Below, piece after piece: positions 3,141 to 62,842 of a DNA stretch of 64,000 bases. The stretch's first letter is position 1; each line of letters opens with the position of its first letter. Source of the DNA: Selenomonadaceae bacterium (GTDB lineage: Bacteria; Bacillota; Negativicutes; Selenomonadales; Selenomonadaceae); NCBI GenBank assembly GCA_017554235.1, contig JAFZIV010000061.1, forward strand, positions 15,984-79,983, written 5' to 3'. The translations under genes were made by a program, and so were the position numbers. The notes under the pieces were generated by a model that saw only the letters and a program-made list of their open reading frames with translations, was not told the origin of the DNA and ran no database searches.

Positions 3141-3521
3141 CTAAACTTCCTCAATATCTTCTGGATGATTTTTGACATATTCGTGATAACTTTTAACCTC
3201 ATCCCAAAAATTTTTACCTTCTGTAGCCTTAAGTTGAAAAGCCAACATTGCCACTGCTGAAATACGCGCGACTTCGTGCGGTTTGAAAGTGTCAACCAAT
3301 TTTTCAACTGTACGCGCCATTTCGGTGAGTACATCGCGTTCATAAGTTCCTACGCGATTCAGGAAAAGAAGGTCAAACATTTGCTGTTCCAAAGGCGACC
3401 AATTCAAAGCAATTCCGGCATTAGAGCGCGGACTTTCATGGTACTCAATATTTTCGTCAACTGCCCCAATATCAGGAATATACATTTCTTCTTCGTCATC
3501 AATAATAGGTCTCTTTTTCAT
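3141..3521 (-). CDS. hypothetical protein (126 aa)
   Basis: Clean ORF between rfbD and the lpt operon. No recognisable domain. Confidence 0.45.
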   Translation of the reverse strand: MKKRPIIDDEEEMYIPDIGAVDENIEYHESPRSNAGIALNWSPLEQQMFDLLFLNRVGTYERDVLTEMARTVEKLVDTFKPHEVARISAVAMLAFQLKATEGKNFWDEVKSYHEYVKNHPEDIEEV

Positions 3522-3639
3522 AGAAAAGAACCGCCTCCGTAAATAAAAAAATTTCTACGCAATGAGTATATCACTAATTGCGCAGGACTGCAAATTTTTT
3601 TTATATTAGTTTTTTTAAAAACATATTCAAATCCTAAAT

Positions 3640-18971: not shown

Positions 18972-19955
18972 ATGGACGACTTGATTATCACCATTTCTTT
19001 TGCAGGAGCTATGTTTTGGTTTTTCTTCACAATATTTATTTTTCAGGTAAAGCAAGGTGCACAATCGCAGATAAGGCGCAGAGTAAGTATTATGATAACA
19101 AAAGCTGAAAATGAACGCGCCAAAAAAGCCGCCAAAATAAAACAAGATGCTAAACAGGCTGAAGAATTACAGATTAGAAAGTTACCTAAAAATAAATTTT
19201 ATACAAAAGTCATCTCACCCATTTTTGATAAACTTGATAAGCATTTCCAAAAATTTGTTCCTGAACAAATAAAAAAAATGTTGGAAGAAAAAATCTTTAT
19301 CGCAGGTAAAGCAAACGTATGGAGTTTAACGCGAGTAATTTCATTTTGCTTTCTCACAACTTTTGCAGGAGCATTGACGGCAGGAATGATAACGACTATA
19401 GTTGAAGTAAATTTTTTACAGAAAATCTTGATTGTTTTGATCGGAGGATTTTTGGGAGCAATATTGCCGATTGTGCGTTTAAATGCCTTGATTCGTATCA
19501 GACAGAAAGCGATTCGTCGAGGCTTACCTGAATTTTTAGATTTACTTTGCGTGAGTGTTCAAGCCGGACTTTCTTTCGACGGCGCGGTTGCCAAAATTAC
19601 TGACAGAATGGAAGGACCTCTTGTCGATGAATTTAAGAAAATGCAAAACGATGTAAACTTGGGAATGACGCGCCAATATGCACTGCAACAAATTGCGCGG
19701 CGTTGTGATTTGGAGGAAATGTATCTGTTTACTTCTTCGGTCATTCAATCGGAAAAACTTGGAACGAGCATGGGGCGTACTTTAAAAATGCAAGCTGACA
19801 ATATGCGTGAAAGACATCGCCAATTTGTAAAAGCAGAGGCGTTGAAAGCTCCCATAAAAATTATTTTCCCAATGGTACTGTTTATTTTCCCGTCAGTCTT
19901 CGTTGTACTTTTAATGCCAGCTATTTTAAACTTAATGAAAAATCTTGCCAAATAA
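18972..19955 (+). CDS. tadC: Flp pilus assembly platform protein TadC (T2SS F family)
   Basis: T2SSF domain (GLPEFLDLLCVSVQAGLSF, SEKLGTS) and TM helices. Confidence 0.85.
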   Translation: MDDLIITISFAGAMFWFFFTIFIFQVKQGAQSQIRRRVSIMITKAENERAKKAAKIKQDAKQAEELQIRKLPKNKFYTKVISPIFDKLDKHFQKFVPEQIKKMLEEKIFIAGKANVWSLTRVISFCFLTTFAGALTAGMITTIVEVNFLQKILIVLIGGFLGAILPIVRLNALIRIRQKAIRRGLPEFLDLLCVSVQAGLSFDGAVAKITDRMEGPLVDEFKKMQNDVNLGMTRQYALQQIARRCDLEEMYLFTSSVIQSEKLGTSMGRTLKMQADNMRERHRQFVKAEALKAPIKIIFPMVLFIFPSVFVVLLMPAILNLMKNLAK

Positions 19956-19959
19956 TTTT

Positions 19960-20208
19960 TGAAAAAGGCGGTGTTTGTAGTCAGTAACCCCCGCCTAACG
20001 GCGGAGGCTTGTTAAAAGCCTTGATTGACTAGCCTTAGTCTCTGACTACGTTACTTGCGAATGTATAGTTACCTACGAGCGTAAATCCTAACTTGTAGCT
20101 CTAAGGGCAATGGTTAAACAGTTCTGAGAGGTAAGAACAGTGCTGTTGCCATGTAAACCGCAAGATAACTTTGGCGAAGGATTATAACTCCGAGAGGAGG
20201 TATGCTTT
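19960..20208 (+). ncRNA. candidate IscB omega-RNA (guide plus scaffold)
   Basis: 253-nt non-coding gap directly 5' of iscB on the same strand. Nested helices readable by eye are: gtagtcag 19977-19984 with ctgactac 20042-20049; ccgcc 19991-19995 with ggcgg 20000-20004; aggctt 20005-20010 with aagcct 20016-20021; ggcaa 20106-20110 with ttgcc 20146-20150; gttct 20121-20125 with agaac 20134-20138. Size and position fit the known IscB omega-RNA arrangement. The exact ends and the guide are not determinable here. Confidence 0.6.
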
Positions 20209-21486
20209 TTGTTAGCATACGTTATCAATAAGCACGGAAAACCTTTAATGCCGTGCAAACCACAAAAAGCTAAAAAACTTTTGAAACAAGGTAGGGTAAA
20301 AGTTATTCGCCGCGAGCCGTTTACAATTCAGTTTTTGTATGGAGCAAGCGGTTATCAGCAGCTCGTAACATTAGGAGTAGACGCAGGTGCAAAATATATC
20401 GGTTTATCTGCGTCAACTGAAAAGAAAGAATTGTATTCTGCCGAAGTTGTGTTACGTACCGACATTACCGAATTAATTTCTACACGTAGAGAATTGAGGA
20501 GGGCAAGGCGCAATCACAAAACACGTTATCGTAAATCAAGATTCTTAAATCGAGTTAAGGCAAAGAAAAAAGGTTGGCTTGCACCGTCGATTTTAAACAG
20601 AATCAACGCACATTTAAAAGTTGTCGATAATGTTTGCCGAATTTTGCCGGTAACAAAAATTATTGTGGAGACAGCGAGCTTTGATATTCAGAAAATCAAA
20701 AATCCTGAAATCAGCGGCGTTGAATATCAGCAGGGCGAACAATTAAATTTCTGGAATGTGAGGGAATATGTTCTATTTAGAGATAAACACGAATGTCAAC
20801 AATGTCACGGGAAAAGCAAAGACAATGTTTTAAATGTTCACCATTTAGAAAGTCGAAAAACTGGAGGTGACGCTCCAAATAATTTAATCACGCTGTGCGA
20901 GACTTGCCACAAAAAATATCACGAAGGAAAAGTCAAACTGAAACGCGGACAGAGTTTTAAGGCAGAAGCATTTATGGGAACAATGCGTTGGATTTTCTTA
21001 AATAAATTGAAAGAAATTTATTTAATCGAAGTCCGAAATACATTCGGCTACATAACGAAGAATACAAGAATTAGATTGGGCTTTCCGAAGGAACATTACA
21101 TTGACGCTTATTGTATCGCAGGAAATGTTTGTGCCAAGAGATTAAATTATTACTGGTACTTGAAACAAGTGAGAAAACACAATCGGCAGATACACAAGCT
21201 TACGATTAATAAGGGCGGTAATCGCAAAAGAAATCAAACGCCGTTTGAAATTTTTGGCTACAGACTTTTTGATAAAGTAAAATGTAAAGGCGAGGTAGGA
21301 TTTATTTTTGGGCGCAGAGCAAGCGGCAGTTTTGATATTCGCAGGCTTGACGGCACAAAAATTTCTGCTGGAATCAGTTACAAAAAGTTAGAATTAATTG
21401 TAAAAAGGAAAAGTTATTTGAAAGAGAGGAGGGGCGCGGTTTCCTCCACACAACTAAATCAGGGGGTATCCAACGCGCATATGTGA
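20209..21486 (+). CDS. iscB: IscB RNA-guided nuclease (PLMP domain, split RuvC, bridge helix, HNH, C-terminal TID)
   Basis: 425 aa. The N-terminus NKHGKPLMPC is the PLMP motif. RuvC-I is LGVDAGAKYIG (Asp58). The Arg-rich bridge helix is RRELRRARRNHKTRYRKSRF. RuvC-II is IIVETASFD. The HNH region is CQQCHGKS..NVHHLESRKTGGDAPNNLITLCETCHKKYH. RuvC-III is HYIDAYC. The C-terminal part is FGYRLFDKV...GFIFGRRASGSFDIRRLDG. TTG start behind GAGGAGG. Confidence 0.85.
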   Translation: MLAYVINKHGKPLMPCKPQKAKKLLKQGRVKVIRREPFTIQFLYGASGYQQLVTLGVDAGAKYIGLSASTEKKELYSAEVVLRTDITELISTRRELRRARRNHKTRYRKSRFLNRVKAKKKGWLAPSILNRINAHLKVVDNVCRILPVTKIIVETASFDIQKIKNPEISGVEYQQGEQLNFWNVREYVLFRDKHECQQCHGKSKDNVLNVHHLESRKTGGDAPNNLITLCETCHKKYHEGKVKLKRGQSFKAEAFMGTMRWIFLNKLKEIYLIEVRNTFGYITKNTRIRLGFPKEHYIDAYCIAGNVCAKRLNYYWYLKQVRKHNRQIHKLTINKGGNRKRNQTPFEIFGYRLFDKVKCKGEVGFIFGRRASGSFDIRRLDGTKISAGISYKKLELIVKRKSYLKERRGAVSSTQLNQGVSNAHM

Positions 21487-23267
21487 TGAAAAAGTTTTTG
21501 AAGTTTTTGAAGTTCTTATCGGCACAGAAGGGACAAACACTTGTCTTATACGCGCTTTTAGTTCCGCTTCTTTTTATGGTAGGCGGAGCAAGTGTAGATT
21601 TAGGCTGGTATTATTACAACAACGCCCGTTTACAAAATATGGCTGACGCGGCAGTTATTGCCGGAGGAAAAGCTCTTGTAAGTGAAAATGGAGAATTGAC
21701 AAATTACACGTACAATAAATTTTTATCTGAAGTTCCCCGCGAAGAAAGGGACGATAAATACAACTTACAAACTCCAATAGGTGATGCAGAAGCTAAAAAT
21801 TATATTGTTAAAAATTTATCCGAAAATTCTAATTGGAACGGCAATCAGATAAACGACAATTTCAGTAACAGTGAATTAAATTTCCAAAGAAATATTTACG
21901 GAATAAAAGATAATCAGGATATTCCGCTTTATTACGAAGTGGAACTTACAGAAAAACATCAACACTTGTTCGACATTTTAAATGATCCCGAATATTCCTT
22001 AGGCAATACGGTTATTACCGTAAATTCTGTTGCGGAATTAAAATATTCGCCGCCTCCTGAGGACCCTACCCCGCCTCCTCAAGAGACTGCACCTGAACCC
22101 ATATCAAACAATATACCGCGACTGGCAGCTGTAAGTGTTGTTAGCGGAAACTGGGAACTTGAAGATGGAAGAATCAGCGGAAAATGGAAAAAAGCGAATG
22201 CAGAGAAAGAACTGGCTAAAAATACCGACAACCTTTTTATTCAAATGTCGGTAAACAGTATTTATCCTGTCGATAAAGTATGGCTGAATTACAATAGCAC
22301 AACAAATTCATATACGACTGGCAATTTTTATAGATCTGCTACGGTTTACGTTAATCCCGGTAACGGAAGATTACGTACAGGTAATGACAGCACAAAAGGC
22401 GAAAAATATCCCGATTCTATAACTCTTGGTTTCAGACAAGACCTTATCAGAGTTTTGCCGGGATATTTGGAAATTCAAGATGGTAAAGTCGTCCGCGTTA
22501 AAGACGGCGGAGACACAATTTTTGATCAAGATTGGGACATTAGAAGAAATACTCCATACAACAGAAAAACGGAAGTCAGATATATAAACCCCAATAAATT
22601 TTGGGACAAATCTTGTGATTTACGAATACACAACATTTTTAATTTTGATACGCCTTTTGAAGTTCGTCCTGAAGTAATTGAGGCAGATAAAAGTAACCCT
22701 TACGATGCTTTATGGGTACGAGTAGAAAGTGAAGCATTTATTCCGCTTAAAATGCTGGGCGTTAATAAAGCCAATCACGTTCAATATAAATCTGTTCGAC
22801 AAATAATTCTCAATATGAATGGCGATAATACTGTAAAAGATGAGAATGGAAATTATAAATACCGCCCTGTCGTAATGTTTTATATGGGGCCTGAAAAAAT
22901 TGATATGAGTTCGTCAGTAAGAAATTCAAAACCGATCATTTTAAATTTGAATGCAGACTTTAGGGGGATTTTGTTTGCGCCGTACAGTCCGGTAATTTTA
23001 AATGCAAATGGTCATAAATTTTACGGCTTTATTGTTGCAAAAGAATATCGCAAATTTACAGTAAATAAAAATGAAGGACATAAAGTTAAACACAATAAAA
23101 GCAACGAAATGTATATCGATGATTATGGAGAAGTATTTAGCGAAAGAACCGACATAGAAAAATGTGGCGACTATGATTCATTTAACATAATGAGTTTTGA
23201 GGACTACGGCTATCAAGTCGCAGATGAAGAAGCCTCCCAAAATAATTTGCTCATATACAGCGAATAG
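21486..23267 (+). CDS. TadG-like pilus-associated protein (putative minor pilin or tip protein)
   Basis: The N-terminus QKGQTLVLYALLVPLLFMVGGASVDLGWYY matches the TadG/Tad-like pseudopilin leader. There is a Pro-rich linker. The C-terminal motif is ADFRGILFAPYSPVILNANGHKFYGFIVA. Its ATG shares one nt with the iscB TGA. Confidence 0.65.
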   Translation: MKKFLKFLKFLSAQKGQTLVLYALLVPLLFMVGGASVDLGWYYYNNARLQNMADAAVIAGGKALVSENGELTNYTYNKFLSEVPREERDDKYNLQTPIGDAEAKNYIVKNLSENSNWNGNQINDNFSNSELNFQRNIYGIKDNQDIPLYYEVELTEKHQHLFDILNDPEYSLGNTVITVNSVAELKYSPPPEDPTPPPQETAPEPISNNIPRLAAVSVVSGNWELEDGRISGKWKKANAEKELAKNTDNLFIQMSVNSIYPVDKVWLNYNSTTNSYTTGNFYRSATVYVNPGNGRLRTGNDSTKGEKYPDSITLGFRQDLIRVLPGYLEIQDGKVVRVKDGGDTIFDQDWDIRRNTPYNRKTEVRYINPNKFWDKSCDLRIHNIFNFDTPFEVRPEVIEADKSNPYDALWVRVESEAFIPLKMLGVNKANHVQYKSVRQIILNMNGDNTVKDENGNYKYRPVVMFYMGPEKIDMSSSVRNSKPIILNLNADFRGILFAPYSPVILNANGHKFYGFIVAKEYRKFTVNKNEGHKVKHNKSNEMYIDDYGEVFSERTDIEKCGDYDSFNIMSFEDYGYQVADEEASQNNLLIYSE

Positions 23268-24620: not shown

Positions 24621-24835
24621 TTAGGAGATCATTAGATCGCTAGTATTAAACACTAATAATCTAAAGGTCTAATTACTAACAACTAAAATTAAGATAGTTA
24701 GTTAGGAGATCATTAGATCGCTAGCAATTTACTAATGATCTAACGATCTAATTACTAGCAACTAGATAGTTAGTTGGGAGATCATTAAATCGCTAGTTAC
24801 TAATGATCTAACGATCTAATTACTAACAACTAAAA
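24616..24835 (+). repeat. Family B hairpin repeats, three tandem copies (B1-B3)
   Basis: There are three units of about 72 nt, each of the form (ga)tagttaggagatcattagatcgctag - loop - actaatgatctaacgatctaattactaacaacta. The first starts on the glgC TAG stop. The last ends 5 nt before the glgD GGAGG. About 30 TAG/TAA triplets occur in 220 nt. Confidence 0.85.
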
Positions 24836-26156: not shown

Positions 26157-26229
26157 TCAGTGATCAGTAATCAGTGATCCGTAGTCAGTTAAAAAATTCT
26201 GATCACTGACCACTGACTACTAACCACTT
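26157..26229 (+). repeat. Family A heptamer-hairpin repeat, copy A1
   Basis: TCAGTGA TCAGTAA TCAGTGA TCCGTAG TCAGTTA - aaaaatt - CTGATCA CTGACCA CTGACTA CTAACCA CTT. It ends 5 nt before the glgP GGAGG. Confidence 0.85.
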
Positions 26230-26251
26230 AAAACGGAGGTGACTTTTGCCT

Positions 26252-28714
26252 ATGGCTATAAATGAAAAGAAAATTACCCATAGCAAAGAATACGAAAAGC
26301 TTAAGGAAAATCTGAAACAACGTTTCATCAGTTCCGCCCACATTATGTTTGGACGCGATCTGAAAGATTTGCCGATGAACGACATTTACAAAACTGTCGC
26401 GGCGGTTGCGAAACAGATTATTTCAGAAAACTGGATTCAGACCAACAAAGCCTATATGGACAGGCAGGTTAAGCAGGTTTATTACTTCTCAATCGAATTT
26501 TTGATGGGGCGTCTCCTGAAATCGAACTTGATTAATCTCGGTATTGATGAAGCTTTCCGTGAAGTCATGGAAGACCTTGAATTTAACCTTGACGAAGCCA
26601 TTGATGAGGAAATGGATATAGGTCTCGGCAACGGCGGTTTAGGGCGTCTTGCCGCGTGTTTTATCGACTCAATGGCGGCGCATCGTCTGCCCGGTCATGG
26701 TTGCTGTATTCGTTATCAGTACGGACTTTTCGAGCAAAAAATTATTCAAGGTAACCAAGTCGAAATTCCCGATAACTGGTTACGTGACGGTTTCGCGTGG
26801 GAATATCGTAAACCCGATAAGGCTATCAACGTCAAATTCAACGGCAACGCTTATATGAAGAAACAGCCTGACGGTTCATTAAAGCTTGTTCATGAAAATG
26901 CTATGGTCGTTATGGCGGTACCTTATGATGTGCCGATTGTAGGTTATCATAATAAGACCGTTAATACTCTTAGATTGTGGAACGCGGAAGTCAATCGTGA
27001 TTTCTCAGATTACGGAATGCTCACTCATGAACAAATGCGCCAAAAACAGGAATACCGTAACTTCGTTGAATCCATTACCCAATACCTTTACCCCGATGAT
27101 AGTTCCAATGAAGGCAAGCGTATGCGCCTGATTCAAGAATACTTCCTCGTCTCCGCCGGCGTCCAATCTATCGTCCGCCATTACGTTAAAGCCGGTATGA
27201 ATATCCGCGAATTTGATAAGAAAATCGCTATCCATATTAACGATACTCACCCCGCACTTTGCGTAGCCGAATTGATGAGAATTTTGGTTGACGATTACGA
27301 TCTTGAATGGAATGAAGCTTGGACTATTACCCGTGCTACCTGCGCTTATACCAACCATACCATTCTCCCTGAAGCACTCGAAACTTGGCCCGTCGATATG
27401 TTCAAAGCTTTACTCCCGCGTATCTATATGATTATCGACGAAATTAACCGTAGACACGTAGAATATATCCGCGCCCGTTATCCTGATAATGTCGATAAAG
27501 TTCGCGCTATGTCTATCATTGAATACGGCGTCGTTCATATGGCTCGCCTCGCTATCGTAGGTTCTCATTCTGTAAACGGCGTCGCGCGTATCCATTCCGA
27601 TATTCTTAAATCTACCACCCTTCACGACTTCTACGAATATTGGCCCCGTATGTTCAATAACAAAACTAACGGCATTACTCATCGCCGCTGGCTCATGGGA
27701 GCAAATCCCGAACTCGCCGACCTTATCGACCGTACTATCGGCTCTCGTATTTGGCACCGTCACCCTGAACAACTCGATTTGTTAAATGAAGCCGTTGATA
27801 ATCCTAAAGTCCTGCGTGAACTCGGCGAAATTAAACATATCCGTAAAGTCGCACTTGCCGAATATATCAAAAAGCATAACAATATCGACGTAGACCCTGA
27901 TACCATTTTTGATATTCAAGTTAAGCGCATTCACTCTTATAAACGGCAACTTATGAATATCCTCCACATCATTTGGCAGTATAACAAACTTAAGACGGAT
28001 CCCAGTTATAACCCGCCTGCTACTACTTATTTCTTCGGCGGTAAAGCTGCGCCCGGTTATTATATCGCTAAGGAAACTATCCGCTTGATTCTTGCCGTTG
28101 CTAAATTGGTTAATAATGACGCCAGCATAAAAGGAAAATTGAAAGTTGTCTTTATCGAAAACTTTGGCGTTTCCATTGGCGAAATTGTTTATCCTGCGGC
28201 TGATGTCTCTGAACAAATTTCAACGGCGTCGAAAGAAGCGTCCGGCACAGGAAATATGAAATTTATGATGAACGGTGCAATAACGCTTGGCACTCTTGAC
28301 GGTGCGAACGTTGAGATTCGTGAAGCTGTCGGCGACGATAACATTGTTATTTTCGGTCTTAAAGCCGGTGAAGTTCTGCGCTATTATGAAACGGGTACTT
28401 ATTCCGCGTGGCAAGAATTCAATGAAAATCCCAATGCGCGTTTAGTGCTTGACAAGTTGACTGACGGAACTTTCGGCAATTTCCAATCTTTGCGTGATTA
28501 TCTGTTGCACGGCAATGACGAATTTTTCATTTTGAAAGACTTCAATGCTTACATTGATGCGCACAACGAAATTTATGCACGATACGAAGATAAAATGAGT
28601 TGGTTGCGTTCAGCCGCTATTAACATTGCCAATTCTGCGCGGTTCTCGTCTGACAGGACGATTGATGAATACGCGGACGAAATTTGGCACATTGTACCTT
28701 GTAAGATTCAGTAA
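26252..28714 (+). CDS. glgP: glycogen/alpha-glucan phosphorylase
   Basis: About 820 aa. The GT35 hallmark EASGTGNMKFMMNGA (PLP lysine) is present, with conserved N-terminal glycogen-binding regions. The ATG at 26252 lies 10 nt after GGAGGTG. Confidence 0.95.
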   Translation: MAINEKKITHSKEYEKLKENLKQRFISSAHIMFGRDLKDLPMNDIYKTVAAVAKQIISENWIQTNKAYMDRQVKQVYYFSIEFLMGRLLKSNLINLGIDEAFREVMEDLEFNLDEAIDEEMDIGLGNGGLGRLAACFIDSMAAHRLPGHGCCIRYQYGLFEQKIIQGNQVEIPDNWLRDGFAWEYRKPDKAINVKFNGNAYMKKQPDGSLKLVHENAMVVMAVPYDVPIVGYHNKTVNTLRLWNAEVNRDFSDYGMLTHEQMRQKQEYRNFVESITQYLYPDDSSNEGKRMRLIQEYFLVSAGVQSIVRHYVKAGMNIREFDKKIAIHINDTHPALCVAELMRILVDDYDLEWNEAWTITRATCAYTNHTILPEALETWPVDMFKALLPRIYMIIDEINRRHVEYIRARYPDNVDKVRAMSIIEYGVVHMARLAIVGSHSVNGVARIHSDILKSTTLHDFYEYWPRMFNNKTNGITHRRWLMGANPELADLIDRTIGSRIWHRHPEQLDLLNEAVDNPKVLRELGEIKHIRKVALAEYIKKHNNIDVDPDTIFDIQVKRIHSYKRQLMNILHIIWQYNKLKTDPSYNPPATTYFFGGKAAPGYYIAKETIRLILAVAKLVNNDASIKGKLKVVFIENFGVSIGEIVYPAADVSEQISTASKEASGTGNMKFMMNGAITLGTLDGANVEIREAVGDDNIVIFGLKAGEVLRYYETGTYSAWQEFNENPNARLVLDKLTDGTFGNFQSLRDYLLHGNDEFFILKDFNAYIDAHNEIYARYEDKMSWLRSAAINIANSARFSSDRTIDEYADEIWHIVPCKIQ

Positions 28715-28782
28715 TCAGTGAAAAGTAATCAGTGATCAGTGAAGAGTGAAAAAAATTTCTGACCACTGACCACTGACCACTT
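28708..28782 (+). repeat. Family A heptamer-hairpin repeat, copy A2
   Basis: TCAGTAA TCAGTGA AAAGTAA TCAGTGA TCAGTGA AGAGTGA - aaaaaattt - cTGACCAC TGACCAC TGACCAC TT. The first TAA is the glgP stop codon. It ends 4 nt before the glgB RBS. Confidence 0.85.
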
Positions 28783-28799
28783 AAAAAGGAAGTGATTTT

Positions 28800-30758: not shown

Positions 30759-30825
30759 TCAGTGAAAAGTAATCAGTGATCAGTGAAAAAACTTCTGACC
30801 ACTGACCACTGATCACTGACCACTT
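30754..30825 (+). repeat. Family A heptamer-hairpin repeat, copy A3
   Basis: aGTAATC AGTGAAA AGTAATC AGTGATC AGTGAAA - aaactt - cTGACCAC TGACCAC TGATCAC TGACCAC TT. The first TAA is the glgB stop. It ends 7 nt before the glgA GGAGG. Confidence 0.85.
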
Positions 30826-40540: not shown

Positions 40541-40777
40541 ATGATTGACGCAGTTAAAATTTCTGTCATTGAAAATGATGTGGAAACACATACATTTACT
40601 TTTAATCAACTTGAATTAAAGAATTTTGCACACGCAATTAGCGATATGGCTGACGAGGGTAAGGAAATCGACTTGGAGAAGGCGGCACACAACGCACGTT
40701 ATTTTTCGGAAATTGACAAACGTATTGCTGAAATGGACAAAGCTTTTTCTGCGATTAGTGGGGAAAAAAATGTATAA
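40541..40777 (+). CDS. putative antitoxin partner of YoeB (non-canonical sequence)
   Basis: 78-aa acidic protein. Its stop overlaps the yoeB ATG by 8 nt, the classical TA arrangement. I do not recognise a YefM/Phd N-terminus. Confidence 0.5.
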   Translation: MIDAVKISVIENDVETHTFTFNQLELKNFAHAISDMADEGKEIDLEKAAHNARYFSEIDKRIAEMDKAFSAISGEKNV

Positions 40778-41036
40778 GCTTTGGAACGAAATTGCATGGG
40801 CTGATTACGTTGATTGGCAACATCAAGATGATAACATTGTTGAACGTATAAACTTACTTCTCAAGGATATTGATCGTAATGGCGTTTCAAAAGGAATTGG
40901 AAAACCTGAAAAGTTAAAGCATCGTAAAGGTTGGTCGCGTCGAATTGACGAAAAACACCGCCTTATTTACGATACTTACGAGGGCAAAGAACAAAAATTT
41001 TTGTACATCATTTCCTGCAAAGGGCATTACGAATAG
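40770..41036 (+). CDS. yoeB: Txe/YoeB family addiction-module toxin
   Basis: 88 aa, reading MYKLWNEIAWADYVDWQ..D....RINLLLKDI.RNG..GIGKPE.LKH...GWSRRID..HRLIY......L.IISCKGHY. This is the canonical YoeB pattern, including the C-terminal H-Y. The internal ATG at 40770 of the longer track ORF is used as the start. Confidence 0.9.
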   Translation: MYKLWNEIAWADYVDWQHQDDNIVERINLLLKDIDRNGVSKGIGKPEKLKHRKGWSRRIDEKHRLIYDTYEGKEQKFLYIISCKGHYE

Positions 41037-46852: not shown

Positions 46853-47262
46853 AAAATTGCCTCCTAAATTTTAATCGCAGATATTATCACATTGTTTTAA
46901 AAAATTATCAAGCAAAAAATTTTCAGAATCTACTCGAATATTTATAGACAAAACGCAATATTTGTAGTAGGATTTTAAGTGGAATAAAATAATTTTTTTG
47001 GAAAGGGAGTTTTAAACAGTAACCCCAAACATTGACAAAAATATACATAGTCTCTAAAATGTCCCTATCAGCGAGAACCAAGCTGAATAAAAAAGTTTTA
47101 ATACCGGTGGCTCGCCGGGAATTCACGACTGTGGAGTGTTACAGCAAACGTTAGTAGGTAAGCCGAGAACGGACACGATGAAGCAGTAAGACAGAATCGC
47201 GAGGTCTGTCCGATTCATCTTGACTTAGACTTTTGTCTATGTTTTAAGGAGCAGTGGTTGTA

Positions 47263-47631
47263 ATGGAAGTTAAAAGATTAAATGTACCGAAGGGAACATC
47301 GGGACTTTCTTTCCGAGATACAAGGTCGGGACAAGGTGCGCGACAAATACAACGTGCGCAAATGACGCCGGATCAAAGTCAAGGTTCGGCATATCAAATA
47401 AGTTTTGCGCGTAGGAGTTTCTTTTTCGAGGAAGACTTCAACGACATAACGATTGAGGAACTTGCGCAGTTTATGGAACGCGAAGAAGATTTTGTAGAGG
47501 AAGTTGACGAAGAAGCGGAAAAAGCTAAGATGGCGGCGGCACAAACTCAACAACCTTCTGAACCTGAACAGCCCGTCGATAAGCGTAAAGTTGCGGCAGT
47601 CGCGGCGTATGATTGGTTTGCATCTCTTTAA
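47263..47631 (+). CDS. hypothetical acidic protein
   Basis: ORF directly upstream of the ABC-F gene. The ATG at 47263 is preferred (AAGGAG 11 nt upstream). No recognisable domain. Confidence 0.45.
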   Translation: MEVKRLNVPKGTSGLSFRDTRSGQGARQIQRAQMTPDQSQGSAYQISFARRSFFFEEDFNDITIEELAQFMEREEDFVEEVDEEAEKAKMAAAQTQQPSEPEQPVDKRKVAAVAAYDWFASL

Positions 47632-59884: not shown

Positions 59885-59962
59885 AGTGGTCAGTGGTCAG
59901 TGATCAGTGGTCAGAAGTTTTTACTATTCACTGATCACTGATTACTATTCACTGATCACTCT
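59885..59962 (-). repeat. Family A heptamer-hairpin repeat, copy A4
   Basis: The transcribed strand reads gag TGA TCAGTGA ATAGTAA TCAGTGA TCAGTGA ATAGTAA - aaactt - cTGACCAC TGATCAC TGACCAC TGACCAC TT. The first TGA is the rpsM stop. It ends 5 nt before the rpsK AAGGAGG. Confidence 0.85.
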
Positions 59963-61488: not shown

Positions 61489-61585
61489 AGTGGTCAGTGA
61501 TCAGTGGTCAGTGGTCAGAAATTTTTCACTTTTCACTGATCACTGATTACTTTTCACTGATCACTGATTACTTTTCACTGATTAC
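61489..61585 (-). repeat. Family A heptamer-hairpin repeat, copy A5 (longest)
   Basis: The transcribed strand, starting right after the secY TAA, reads GTAATCA GTGAAAA GTAATCA GTGATCA GTGAAAA GTAATCA GTGATCA GTGAAAA GTGAAAA - attt - cTGACCAC TGACCAC TGATCAC TGACCAC TT. It ends 6 nt before the adk GGAGG. Confidence 0.85.
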
Positions 61586-62842
61586 TTACTTCATAAAGCC
61601 TTCATAGTGCCGCATGACGACCATTGATTCTATCTGTTTCATCGTATGAAGCGCAACACTTACCACGATTAATAATGCCGTCCCGCCGAAATATACGCCT
61701 TGTATGTGCGTCGCTCCTCCTATCATCGTCGGCAATACCGCTATAAATGATAAGAAGACTGATCCCGCCAGCGTCAATCTCGTCAATACGTGATCTATAT
61801 AATCTGCCGTCGGTTGCCCCGGTCTGATTCCAGGTATAAACGCTCCATACTTTTTAAGATTGTCCGCCATATCAGGGATTTTTACCGTTACTGCCGTGTA
61901 GAAATACGTAAAGAAAATTATCAGCACAACGTAGATTGACGTTTGTAACGGCGTTCCCCATTGTAAATACGCCGCCACTTTCTGTACCGTCGGATTGTCG
62001 ATAAACTGTACCACCGTTATCGGGAACATCAGCACGCTTGACGCAAAGATTATCGGTATTACACCTGCTTGATTCACTTTCAACGGTATGTGGCTTGAAT
62101 GTCCGCCATATGCTCTTGAGCCTGTAACTCTTTTTGCGTAGGTTATCGGTATCCGTCTGTATGCCGCCTCGACGTAGATTACGAATACTATCATCGCTAC
62201 CGCTATCATTGCGAAAAGTAACGCGTTGAAATAATTTATCGTTCCGGCTTGCAGATAGCTGTATATCATTCCCAGATTTTTAGGCAGTGCCGCGACTATT
62301 CCCGCGAAGATGATTAACGATATTCCGTTTCCTACGCCCTGCGCCGTTATCTGTTCGCCTATCCACATCAACAGCGTTGTCCCTGCCGTCAACGTGATTG
62401 CTATGATTAATATGTTGACGGGATTGGGATTTAATATCGCCGCTTTCAGACCGATTGACATCCCTATTGCTTGTAAGAATGCCAGTACTACCGTTAATTT
62501 GCGCGTTACCTTCGTCATCTTTTTATGACCTTCCGCGCCTTCCTTCGACCATTGCTCCAATGTCGGTATCACTACCGTTAAAAGTTGCATTATGATTGAC
62601 GCGTTGATATACGGCGTGATACTCATCGCGAAGATTGAAAATTTACTGAACGCTCCGCCTGAAAATAAATCCAGCAGTCCGAATAAACTTCCGTTGTTGA
62701 AAAGTTGCTCTATCGCCGTTGGATCGACGCCCGGTACAGGTATGTGAGTTCCCAGTCGAAATACCGCAAACATTATCAGCGTAAAGATTATACGTTGTCG
62801 CAGTTCAGGAATTTTGAAAATATTTGAAAGTGCGGAAAGCAC
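61586..62842 (-). CDS. secY: preprotein translocase subunit SecY
   Basis: 418 aa, 10 TM helices, with conserved SecY motifs (GISPYINASIIMQLL, etc.). In ribosomal operon context. Confidence 0.95.
   Translation of the reverse strand: MLSALSNIFKIPELRQRIIFTLIMFAVFRLGTHIPVPGVDPTAIEQLFNNGSLFGLLDLFSGGAFSKFSIFAMSITPYINASIIMQLLTVVIPTLEQWSKEGAEGHKKMTKVTRKLTVVLAFLQAIGMSIGLKAAILNPNPVNILIIAITLTAGTTLLMWIGEQITAQGVGNGISLIIFAGIVAALPKNLGMIYSYLQAGTINYFNALLFAMIAVAMIVFVIYVEAAYRRIPITYAKRVTGSRAYGGHSSHIPLKVNQAGVIPIIFASSVLMFPITVVQFIDNPTVQKVAAYLQWGTPLQTSIYVVLIIFFTYFYTAVTVKIPDMADNLKKYGAFIPGIRPGQPTADYIDHVLTRLTLAGSVFLSFIAVLPTMIGGATHIQGVYFGGTALLIVVSVALHTMKQIESMVVMRHYEGFMK

Follow-up and report, generated by a model that had tools for sequence, protein, structure and literature searches.

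An intact IscB-ωRNA element at the start codon of a tad pilus gene in a rumen Selenomonadaceae genome

What kind of element carries the 425-aa open reading frame (ORF) that lies within a tad/Flp pilus operon of a rumen Selenomonadaceae, and how is it placed in its host? We examined this in a window of 64,000 nt, the whole stretch of DNA analyzed here, which covers positions 15,984-79,983 of the + strand of contig JAFZIV010000061.1 (metagenome-assembled genome, MAG, GCA_017554235.1); coordinates below are those of the window. The original prediction had read the ORF as an intact IscB, an RNA-guided nuclease, with its OMEGA RNA (ωRNA) encoded just upstream. The locus is very probably a 1506-bp non-autonomous ISC2/IS200-IS605 transposon that carries an intact IscB and ωRNA and has inserted, without target duplication, at N|ATGA, the start codon of a tad pilus gene in a co-oriented operon. 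The IscB family is already well described, and this copy is recognized directly by standard models (NCBIfam, Rfam). What is added here is the exact anatomy of the element, comprising its ends, guide, target-adjacent motif (TAM), and empty site, together with a pattern of start-codon docking among its relatives. The parts of the element and its target are as follows.

19980-21485, + strand: whole element, 1506 bp, 5'-GTCA...TG-3', with no tnpA and no target-site duplication; bounds taken from >50 copies in other flanks.
19980-20188, + strand: ωRNA scaffold (HEARO, RF02033); position 19980 is also where the transposon ends on the ωRNA side.
20188-20220, + strand: ωRNA 3' extension and iscB leader, with a CTCC/GGAG hairpin (20188-20199) and a 7-bp hairpin (GTATGCT 20200-20206/AGCATAC 20214-20220).
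20209-21486, + strand: iscB coding sequence, 425 aa, with NCBIfam, Pfam, PDB, and Foldseek matches.
21425-21485, + strand: iscB-side terminal region (the IS200/IS605 left end in reverse), with palindromic blocks GGAGG..CCTCC and GCGCG..CGCGC, ending ...CATATGTG.
21486-21489, + strand: target site and TAM, ATGA (opposite strand TCAT), directly next to the left end; its ATG is the tad start codon, and its first A completes the IscB stop.

The protein is an IscB by family models, sequence, and predicted fold. The NCBIfam equivalog model NF040563 ("RNA-guided endonuclease IscB") matched residues 4-303 at 365.6 bits against a cut-off of 175, and Pfam assigned RRXRR (7e-66, 221.8 bits) and HNH (9e-8, 32.7 bits) domains. 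The top PDB sequence matches were all IscB (11hr, 1e-43; OgeuIscB 7xht, 4e-40), and a profile of 33 homologues of 68-85% identity found an IscB in the PDB at 4e-62. Structural comparison pointed the same way: the ten best Foldseek matches in the PDB were all IscB or IsrB complexes, with 8csz_D aligned over the whole chain at E = 2.7e-21. The motifs on which the original prediction relied are all present in the order it gave. The PLMP motif (KPLMPC, 11-16) is followed by RuvC-I (LGVDAG, 55-60, with D58), an Arg-rich bridge helix at ~86-117 (RRELRRARRN at 93-102; RRELRRARRNHKTRYRKSR at 93-111), and RuvC-II (IVETASFD, 152-159, with E154). The HNH domain (Pfam HNH over 196-239) then lies between RuvC-II and RuvC-III, with CQQC at 196-199, NVHHLE at 209-214 (H211/H212), and CETC at 230-233 plus H234/H238, and RuvC-III is HYIDAYC at 296-302 (H296, D299).

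Conservation supports the intactness of this protein. The PLMP motif aligns to the OgeuIscB N-terminus, and D58, E154, H211/H212, and H296/D299 align with identical OgeuIscB residues. Across the 33 homologues, D58, E154, H211, H212, H234, H238, H296, and D299 are invariant, as are C196, C199, C230, and C233 and the PLMP residues M14, P15, and C16, which agrees with the earlier statement that no catalytic residue is mutated. Against the closest copies, dN/dS was 0.05-0.07 (with dS saturated), and iscB is under strong purifying selection. By homology, the protein would be expected to cleave DNA. Translation starts at TTG 20209, 8 nt downstream of a Shine-Dalgarno (SD) sequence, GGAGG, at 20196-20200; relatives L018 and L042 carry ATG at this codon. 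At 425 aa, this is a compact IscB, ~70 aa shorter than OgeuIscB. Homologues are numerous, with at least 8000 proteins at E ≤ 0.001, so the individual value of this IscB is modest. The identical protein is present in NCBI nr under the name "HNH endonuclease," from a Selenomonadaceae MAG.

The region upstream of iscB encodes a complete ωRNA scaffold. The gap between the upstream gene and iscB spans 253 nt (19956-20208) and contains no + strand ORF, and its fold beats all 200 shuffles (z = -3.2). The covariance-model scan matched Rfam HEARO at 19980-20188 over the entire model (positions 1-211 of 211); the score was 128 bits, with a gathering cut-off of 83 (E = 2e-27), and the match ends 20 nt 5' of the iscB start codon. 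RNAalifold, run on 29 copies from unrelated loci, recovered the same HEARO helices, with compensatory double changes in 31 of 42 pairs. Together, the protein and RNA matches far exceed what could arise at random. The original prediction had taken all 253 nt as a structured, non-coding ωRNA region; this stood for the scaffold, while the first 24 positions (19956-19979) proved to be host DNA, the predicted guide source and no part of the scaffold.

The Rfam model stops at 20188, and two further hairpins follow here (20188-20220), both of them present in the minimum-free-energy fold. The second holds the TTG start codon (20209) in its loop. In the alignment, 82% of cells pair in this start-codon hairpin, 4 of its 7 pairs have changed on both sides, and its register beats all slid registers; other subfamilies, with differing sequences, still form a hairpin around the start codon. 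The anti-SD helix CTCC/GGAG (20188-20199), in which 59% of cells pair, is a tentative and weakly supported assignment.

The ends of the element were set by its relatives, comprising 117 related loci found by scanning metagenomes along with a single genome for each species. DNA similarity to these copies sets in sharply at 19980 (GTCA...) and is lost after 21489 (...CATATGTGATGA); the sequences on either side bear no relation from one copy to another. Across subfamilies, the terminal ATGA does not change and the two nucleotides in front of it do, so that ATGA is the target site and the element is 19980-21485. The ωRNA-side end at 19980 is the IS200/IS605 right end and overlaps the P1 stem of the ωRNA, while the iscB-side terminal region is kept in all close copies up to ATGA, where similarity stops. 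For the relatives, element ends were taken from the ends of all-against-all blastn alignments, blind to downstream coding, which gave 57 non-redundant insertions. ATGA lies directly 3' of the element in 53 of these 57 (52/55 in another count); since an ATG was required when boundaries were picked, positions 1-3 of the TAM logo could not vary. Locus L016, whose boundary had been set wrongly, was left out. A reading in which the TG before ATGA is flank, making the target TGATGA, was also considered and rejected, as both bases vary between subfamilies while ATGA does not.

The host side of the insertion is composed of three features.

18972-19955, + strand: upstream host gene T2SSF (TadB/C-like) of the tad/Flp operon (Pfam T2SSF), with its stop at 19953-19955.
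19956-19979, + strand: host intergenic DNA and predicted guide source, carrying the SD-like AAGGCGG of the tad gene; the 16-nt core at 19964-19979 is AAAGGCGGTGTTTGTA.
21486-23267, + strand: downstream host gene for a Tad/TadE-like pilus assembly protein, 593 aa (Pfam Tad, TadE).

The element thus lies in a co-oriented tad/Flp pilus operon with the order T2SSE, GGDEF, T2SSF, element, Tad/TadE-like gene, and the gene calls on the parent contig are the same. Positions 19956-19979 are outside the element, since other copies align from 19980 onward and have different flanks. An empty orthologous operon, L040, has the same gene order without IscB, running from the T2SSF stop through 20 nt to the Tad start. 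The closest orthologue, L039 (71% identity), is also uninterrupted and reads ...aaaTAGttttgcagaaagggcggcgtttatgATGAAAAAGTTTTTT, where the window reads ...aaaTAAtttttgaaaaaggcggtgtttgta, then the element, then ATGAAAAAGTTTTTG. Joined, the window flanks equal the L039 intergenic region with no duplicated bases, and the tad protein orthologues have matching N-termini and begin at ATG 21486. The L039 alignment therefore places the insertion exactly between the SD-like AAGGCGG with its spacer and the tad start codon, and the SD and start codon of the tad gene now lie on opposite sides of the element. This allows the empty site to be reconstructed, with a junction of TTTGTA followed by ATGAAAAAG, and the orthologue confirms it.

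The guide, the native TAM, and an overlap between the two reading frames all follow from this position between SD and ATG. In IscB systems, the guide is 5' of the scaffold and outside the transposon (Meers et al. 2023, bioRxiv 10.1101/2023.03.14.532601). By analogy, the guide here is predicted to be the 16-24 nt of host DNA preceding 19980, of which the 16-nt core occurs only once in the window. ATGAAA, the native TAM, agrees with the NWRRNA motif of OgeuIscB, and characterized homologues suggest that some preference would extend beyond ATGA. The A that closes the IscB stop (TGA, 21484-21486) also opens the host ATG, giving TGATGA. In the allele that carries the element, GTCAGT comes directly after the protospacer, and self-targeting is thereby avoided. 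OMEGA homing logic is cleanly illustrated by this natural locus, with the left flank as guide and the right flank as TAM. With native guide, scaffold, and probable TAM (ATGA[A]) now definable, the system is directly testable as a small editor.

From this anatomy we can postulate how the element would act. Transcription of the tad operon would read through the T2SSF gene, the likely source of the transcript that supplies the guide, into the element, and RNA from ~19964 to ~20220 would become ωRNA. Its 5' part would be a guide of ~16-20 nt copied from host DNA (AAAGGCGGUGUUUGUA, the tad SD and spacer), and the rest would comprise the HEARO scaffold and two 3' hairpins enclosing the SD and TTG start of iscB. 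The IscB-ωRNA complex would then recognize double-stranded DNA matching the guide and followed by the TAM ATGA(A). Both features would occur together only in the empty allele (...GGCGGTGTTTGTA directly followed by ATGAAA...), which would arise if a TnpA acting in trans excised the element. The HNH domain, whose H212 aligns with the catalytic His, would cut the target strand, RuvC (D58, E154, H296, D299) would cut the non-target strand, and recombination with a sister copy would re-install the element. The transcription and processing of the ωRNA, like the current mobility of this copy, are assigned here by analogy with characterized homologues.

We then compared the locus with known systems. 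OgeuIscB-ωRNA (PDB 7UTN, 7XHT, 8CSZ, 8CTL) shares the domain order PLMP, RuvC-I, bridge helix, RuvC-II, HNH, RuvC-III, C-terminal domain, and also a HEARO-type ωRNA, and its catalytic residues align with D58, H212, the RuvC-II Glu, and the RuvC-III His and Asp of this protein. In OgeuIscB numbering, we take D61 to lie opposite D58 and H247 opposite H212. The relationship is remote (phmmer E ~1e-40; 17-23% identity in structural alignment). OgeuIscB has 496 aa against 425 aa here, ~30 residues between bridge helix and RuvC-II (OgeuIscB 115-145) are missing in our protein, and the last 100 aa have no detectable sequence similarity to OgeuIscB.

GstIscB of ISGst (Meers et al. 2023) is likewise encoded by a non-autonomous IS200/IS605-family element with HEARO at its right end and a guide drawn from beyond the element. 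TTCAT, the GstIscB TAM, abuts the left end, as ATGA(A) does here, and reads ATGAA in iscB orientation; the residues replaced in its dead mutant (D58A/H209A/H210A) have near-identical numbering to D58/H211/H212. Both show the same orientation bias towards the upstream gene. The hosts differ, Geobacillus for GstIscB and a rumen Selenomonadaceae MAG here, and, unlike in GstIscB, the IscB ORF of this subfamily runs through the terminal palindrome to a TAM-overlapping stop. The ISC2 N|ATGA transposons (Kapitonov, Makarova, Koonin 2016, PMC4810608) have 5'-GTCA termini and insert immediately upstream of ATGA without target duplication. They encode only IscB in ~1.3-1.7 kb, with termini 5'-GTCA ... 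|ATGA as here; the families named in that paper are from Cyanobacteria and Proteobacteria, whereas ours is from a Selenomonadaceae MAG.

Several observations weigh against the reading of this locus as an intact, mobile IscB-ωRNA transposon. The AlphaFold2 model is of moderate quality (mean predicted local distance difference test score, pLDDT, 66.5; predicted template modeling score, pTM, 0.60); confidence is low for segments of the bridge helix (91-116) and near HNH (157-194 and 214-224). A PDB search with the C-terminal 101 aa gave no sequence match at E thresholds as high as 10, and the curated family models end at residue 303. For this reason, the C-terminal TAM-interaction domain of the original prediction is kept as a candidate: its position, a well-predicted beta-rich fold (residues ~340-405, pLDDT 80-89), and the full-length Foldseek alignment suggest such a domain, and sequence similarity to solved IscBs is missing. 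The single-stranded DNA fold of the iscB-side terminus, the expected left-end hairpin, was not above shuffles (z = 0.24), so we report only its conserved palindromic blocks and treat the hairpin assignment as tentative. Promoter-like sites for the ωRNA were not above background, with none just upstream of 19964. We therefore ascribe ωRNA expression to assumed operon read-through; no + strand terminator was found, and published work holds that IscB ωRNAs are transcribed from outside the element, with which the local lack of a promoter signal is consistent. Finally, we found no Y1 TnpA in the 64-kb window (tblastn; Pfam on 10 small ORFs), where the element is present as a single copy. The same tblastn query detected TnpA at a related locus (L049) as a positive control. 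With no TnpA in the window and one copy only, the current mobility of this copy is conjectural.

This last point bears on the strongest rival explanation, in which the copy is immobilized or domesticated. It would be unable to transpose for want of a cognate TnpA in the genome, and it would be kept either because IscB-ωRNA kills or repairs cells that lose it or because it serves the tad operon through translational coupling or RNA structure. The missing tnpA, the overlap of the IscB stop with the host ATG, and the strong purifying selection are all compatible with this, as is the finding that the arrangement is identical in all 6 assemblies that encode this protein. The rarity of adjoining genes fits too, as iscB adjoins tnpA at only one of our 118 loci and in ~1.5% of published cases (Meers et al. 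2023, bioRxiv 10.1101/2023.03.14.532601). However, absence of a nearby tnpA is the norm for mobile IscB elements, and TnpA absence is established for the 64-kb window only. Moreover, both ends and the TAM are intact, and near-identical copies of close relatives occupy different loci: L018 and L004 are 98% identical with different flanks in different MAGs, and Sporosarcina FA9 has 4 copies that are 88-98% identical, from which we conclude that the clade is mobile. Immobilization is accordingly unlikely, and a mobile-type transposon is preferred.

Two related loci deserve separate mention with respect to mobility. At L049, a Y1 (HUH) TnpA gene (1707-2078) adjoins iscB and overlaps the IscB stop, the only such arrangement among the 118 loci; this is a candidate autonomous element of the clade and a possible trans-mobilizer type. 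At L004 (3225-3571), in a Quinella MAG, a miniature element without an iscB gene lies ~200 nt upstream of a full IscB element. It has a HEARO/ωRNA copy (3225-3432) and an iscB-side terminus ending in ATGA (3524-3571), and so resembles a guide-RNA-only derivative of the PATE (palindrome-associated transposable element) kind.

The second rival, that the locus is a recently inactivated relic, is very unlikely. Here the ORF and RNA would look intact while the ribonucleoprotein was inactive, for example through a divergent C-terminal domain or an altered tail. Beyond ~residue 405, a frameshift does give the tail a sequence unlike that of relatives, and translation continues across the terminal palindrome; the C-terminal domain is unmatched to solved structures by sequence. 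Yet several relatives share the read-through type of tail ending at TGATGA, C-terminal residues are conserved across the 33 homologues, all catalytic residues are invariant, and dN/dS is ~0.05, all of which argue for an intact nuclease.

That the protein is some other HNH endonuclease, from a phage, a group II intron, or a CRISPR-associated Cas9d fragment, as the NCBI name and a weak Cas9d match (25 bits) might suggest, is ruled out by an IscB model passed twofold, RuvC motifs that flank the HNH domain, the HEARO match upstream, and top structural matches that are all IscB or IsrB. None of the outcomes named as refuting in the original prediction was seen: no other HNH endonuclease matches the ORF better, RuvC motifs are present, and the covariance model finds its RNA. 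Type II-D Cas9d and compact Cas9 share the RuvC-HNH architecture and bridge helix, and weak matches were seen to them (NF049971; PDB 9lgi and 9k31), but our protein has no recognition (REC) lobe. Membership in type II CRISPR-Cas9 was likewise rejected, since the 64-kb window holds no CRISPR-like array and the 25 bits of NF049971 fall far below its cut-off of 375.

Having placed this insertion at a start codon, we examined whether its relatives are placed in the same way. Across the 57 insertions, the target ATG opens a co-oriented ORF of ≥60 aa in 33 (58%) and of ≥100 aa in 25. At random ATGA sites in the same loci the corresponding figures were 24.5% and 17% (p = 8e-8 against the insertions), although internal Met codons, which account for most such cases, make this a weak control. 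Joining the flanks of 36 loci gave canonical initiation regions of SD, spacer, and ATG, for example AGGAGGgattaaATG, AGGAGGtgttagcaATG, and AAGGAGaatcccATG. An SD-like 4-mer was present at -5 to -16 in 15 of 32 sites, compared with 13.2% of control ATGA sites (p = 4e-6), and in 14/22 of the sites with a long ORF. Pfam domains in the downstream ORFs begin close to the target ATG: RuvA_N profile positions 1-61 fall on residues 1-61 at L018, Metallophos starts from residue 1 at L096, the homoserine dehydrogenase NAD-binding domain from residue 7 at L028, Fe-ADH from residue 8 at L109, and ABC_tran from residue 18 at L005. These domain starts indicate that the docked ORFs are real genes beginning at the target ATG. 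Within this clade, most TAMs are host start codons and most guides are host ribosome-binding sites.

It is possible, to a degree that we place slightly below an even chance, that ATGA-TAM IscB elements systematically dock between the SD and start codon of expressed, co-oriented host genes, such that the start codon would be both TAM and TnpA target, the host ribosome-binding site would be the guide, and host transcription would supply that guide. The pattern may reflect targeting, or simply the survival of harmless, transcribed insertions. If true, the element would be a low-cost extra cistron in an operon rather than a gene-disrupting insertion sequence. If general, docking would explain guide transcription, the preference for the orientation of the upstream gene (a bias noted by Meers et al.), and low-cost persistence in operons. 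The ATGA target and the orientation bias have been published, with no mention of start codons (PMC4810608; bioRxiv 10.1101/2023.03.14.532601). The terms "start codon" and "initiation codon" are absent from PMC4810608, and start-codon docking goes unmentioned in Kapitonov 2016 (PMC4810608), Meers 2023, and a 2026 OMEGA review, the three sources compared.

The overlap of stop and start seen in the window also occurs in relatives. At L042, L055, and L088, the IscB ORF runs to the element end and its stop is the TGA inside the target ATGA, so that stop and start are both provided by the host target, in the classic ATGA stop-start overlap of coupled genes. In the window, termination-reinitiation at the TGATGA overlap may sustain translation of the displaced host gene.

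Away from the IscB element, several other features of the window were recorded. A match to Rfam RAGATH-18 at 47128-47189 (+) scored 70.6 bits against a cut-off of 44.9. RAGATH-18 has been reported to be the guide-RNA scaffold of IS607 TnpB nucleases. The match is an orphan, with no adjacent TnpB, and its neighbors are a divergent NTP_transferase gene, a 125-aa ORF (47254-47631) without a Pfam match, and an ABC-F ATPase.

An intergenic module built of heptamer repeats was found just upstream of the SD of several genes, at 26157-26235 (+), 28708-28785 (+), 30773-30825 (+), 59885-59960 (-), and 61489-61588 (-). The order within the module is several TCAGTGA/TCAGTAA units, an A-rich linker, several CTGACCA/CTGATCA units, CTTAAAA, GGAGG, and the start codon. 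Its arms form imperfect inverted repeats, whose mismatches are A.C in the sense strand and would be G.U in the antisense. A ribosomal-protein gene cluster holds two of the copies, one of which shortly precedes the S11 gene, and the module may be a repetitive extragenic palindromic (REP)-like or regulatory element. A separate 68-nt unit, partly palindromic, occurs twice with 90% identity at 24692-24832, immediately upstream of the SD of an NTP_transferase-like gene (24853).

Finally, a 136-aa ORF at 40626-41036 (+) contains a YoeB-like toxin domain at residues 53-135. A type II toxin-antitoxin pair is probable here, its antitoxin being encoded in the 5' part of the ORF or just upstream.

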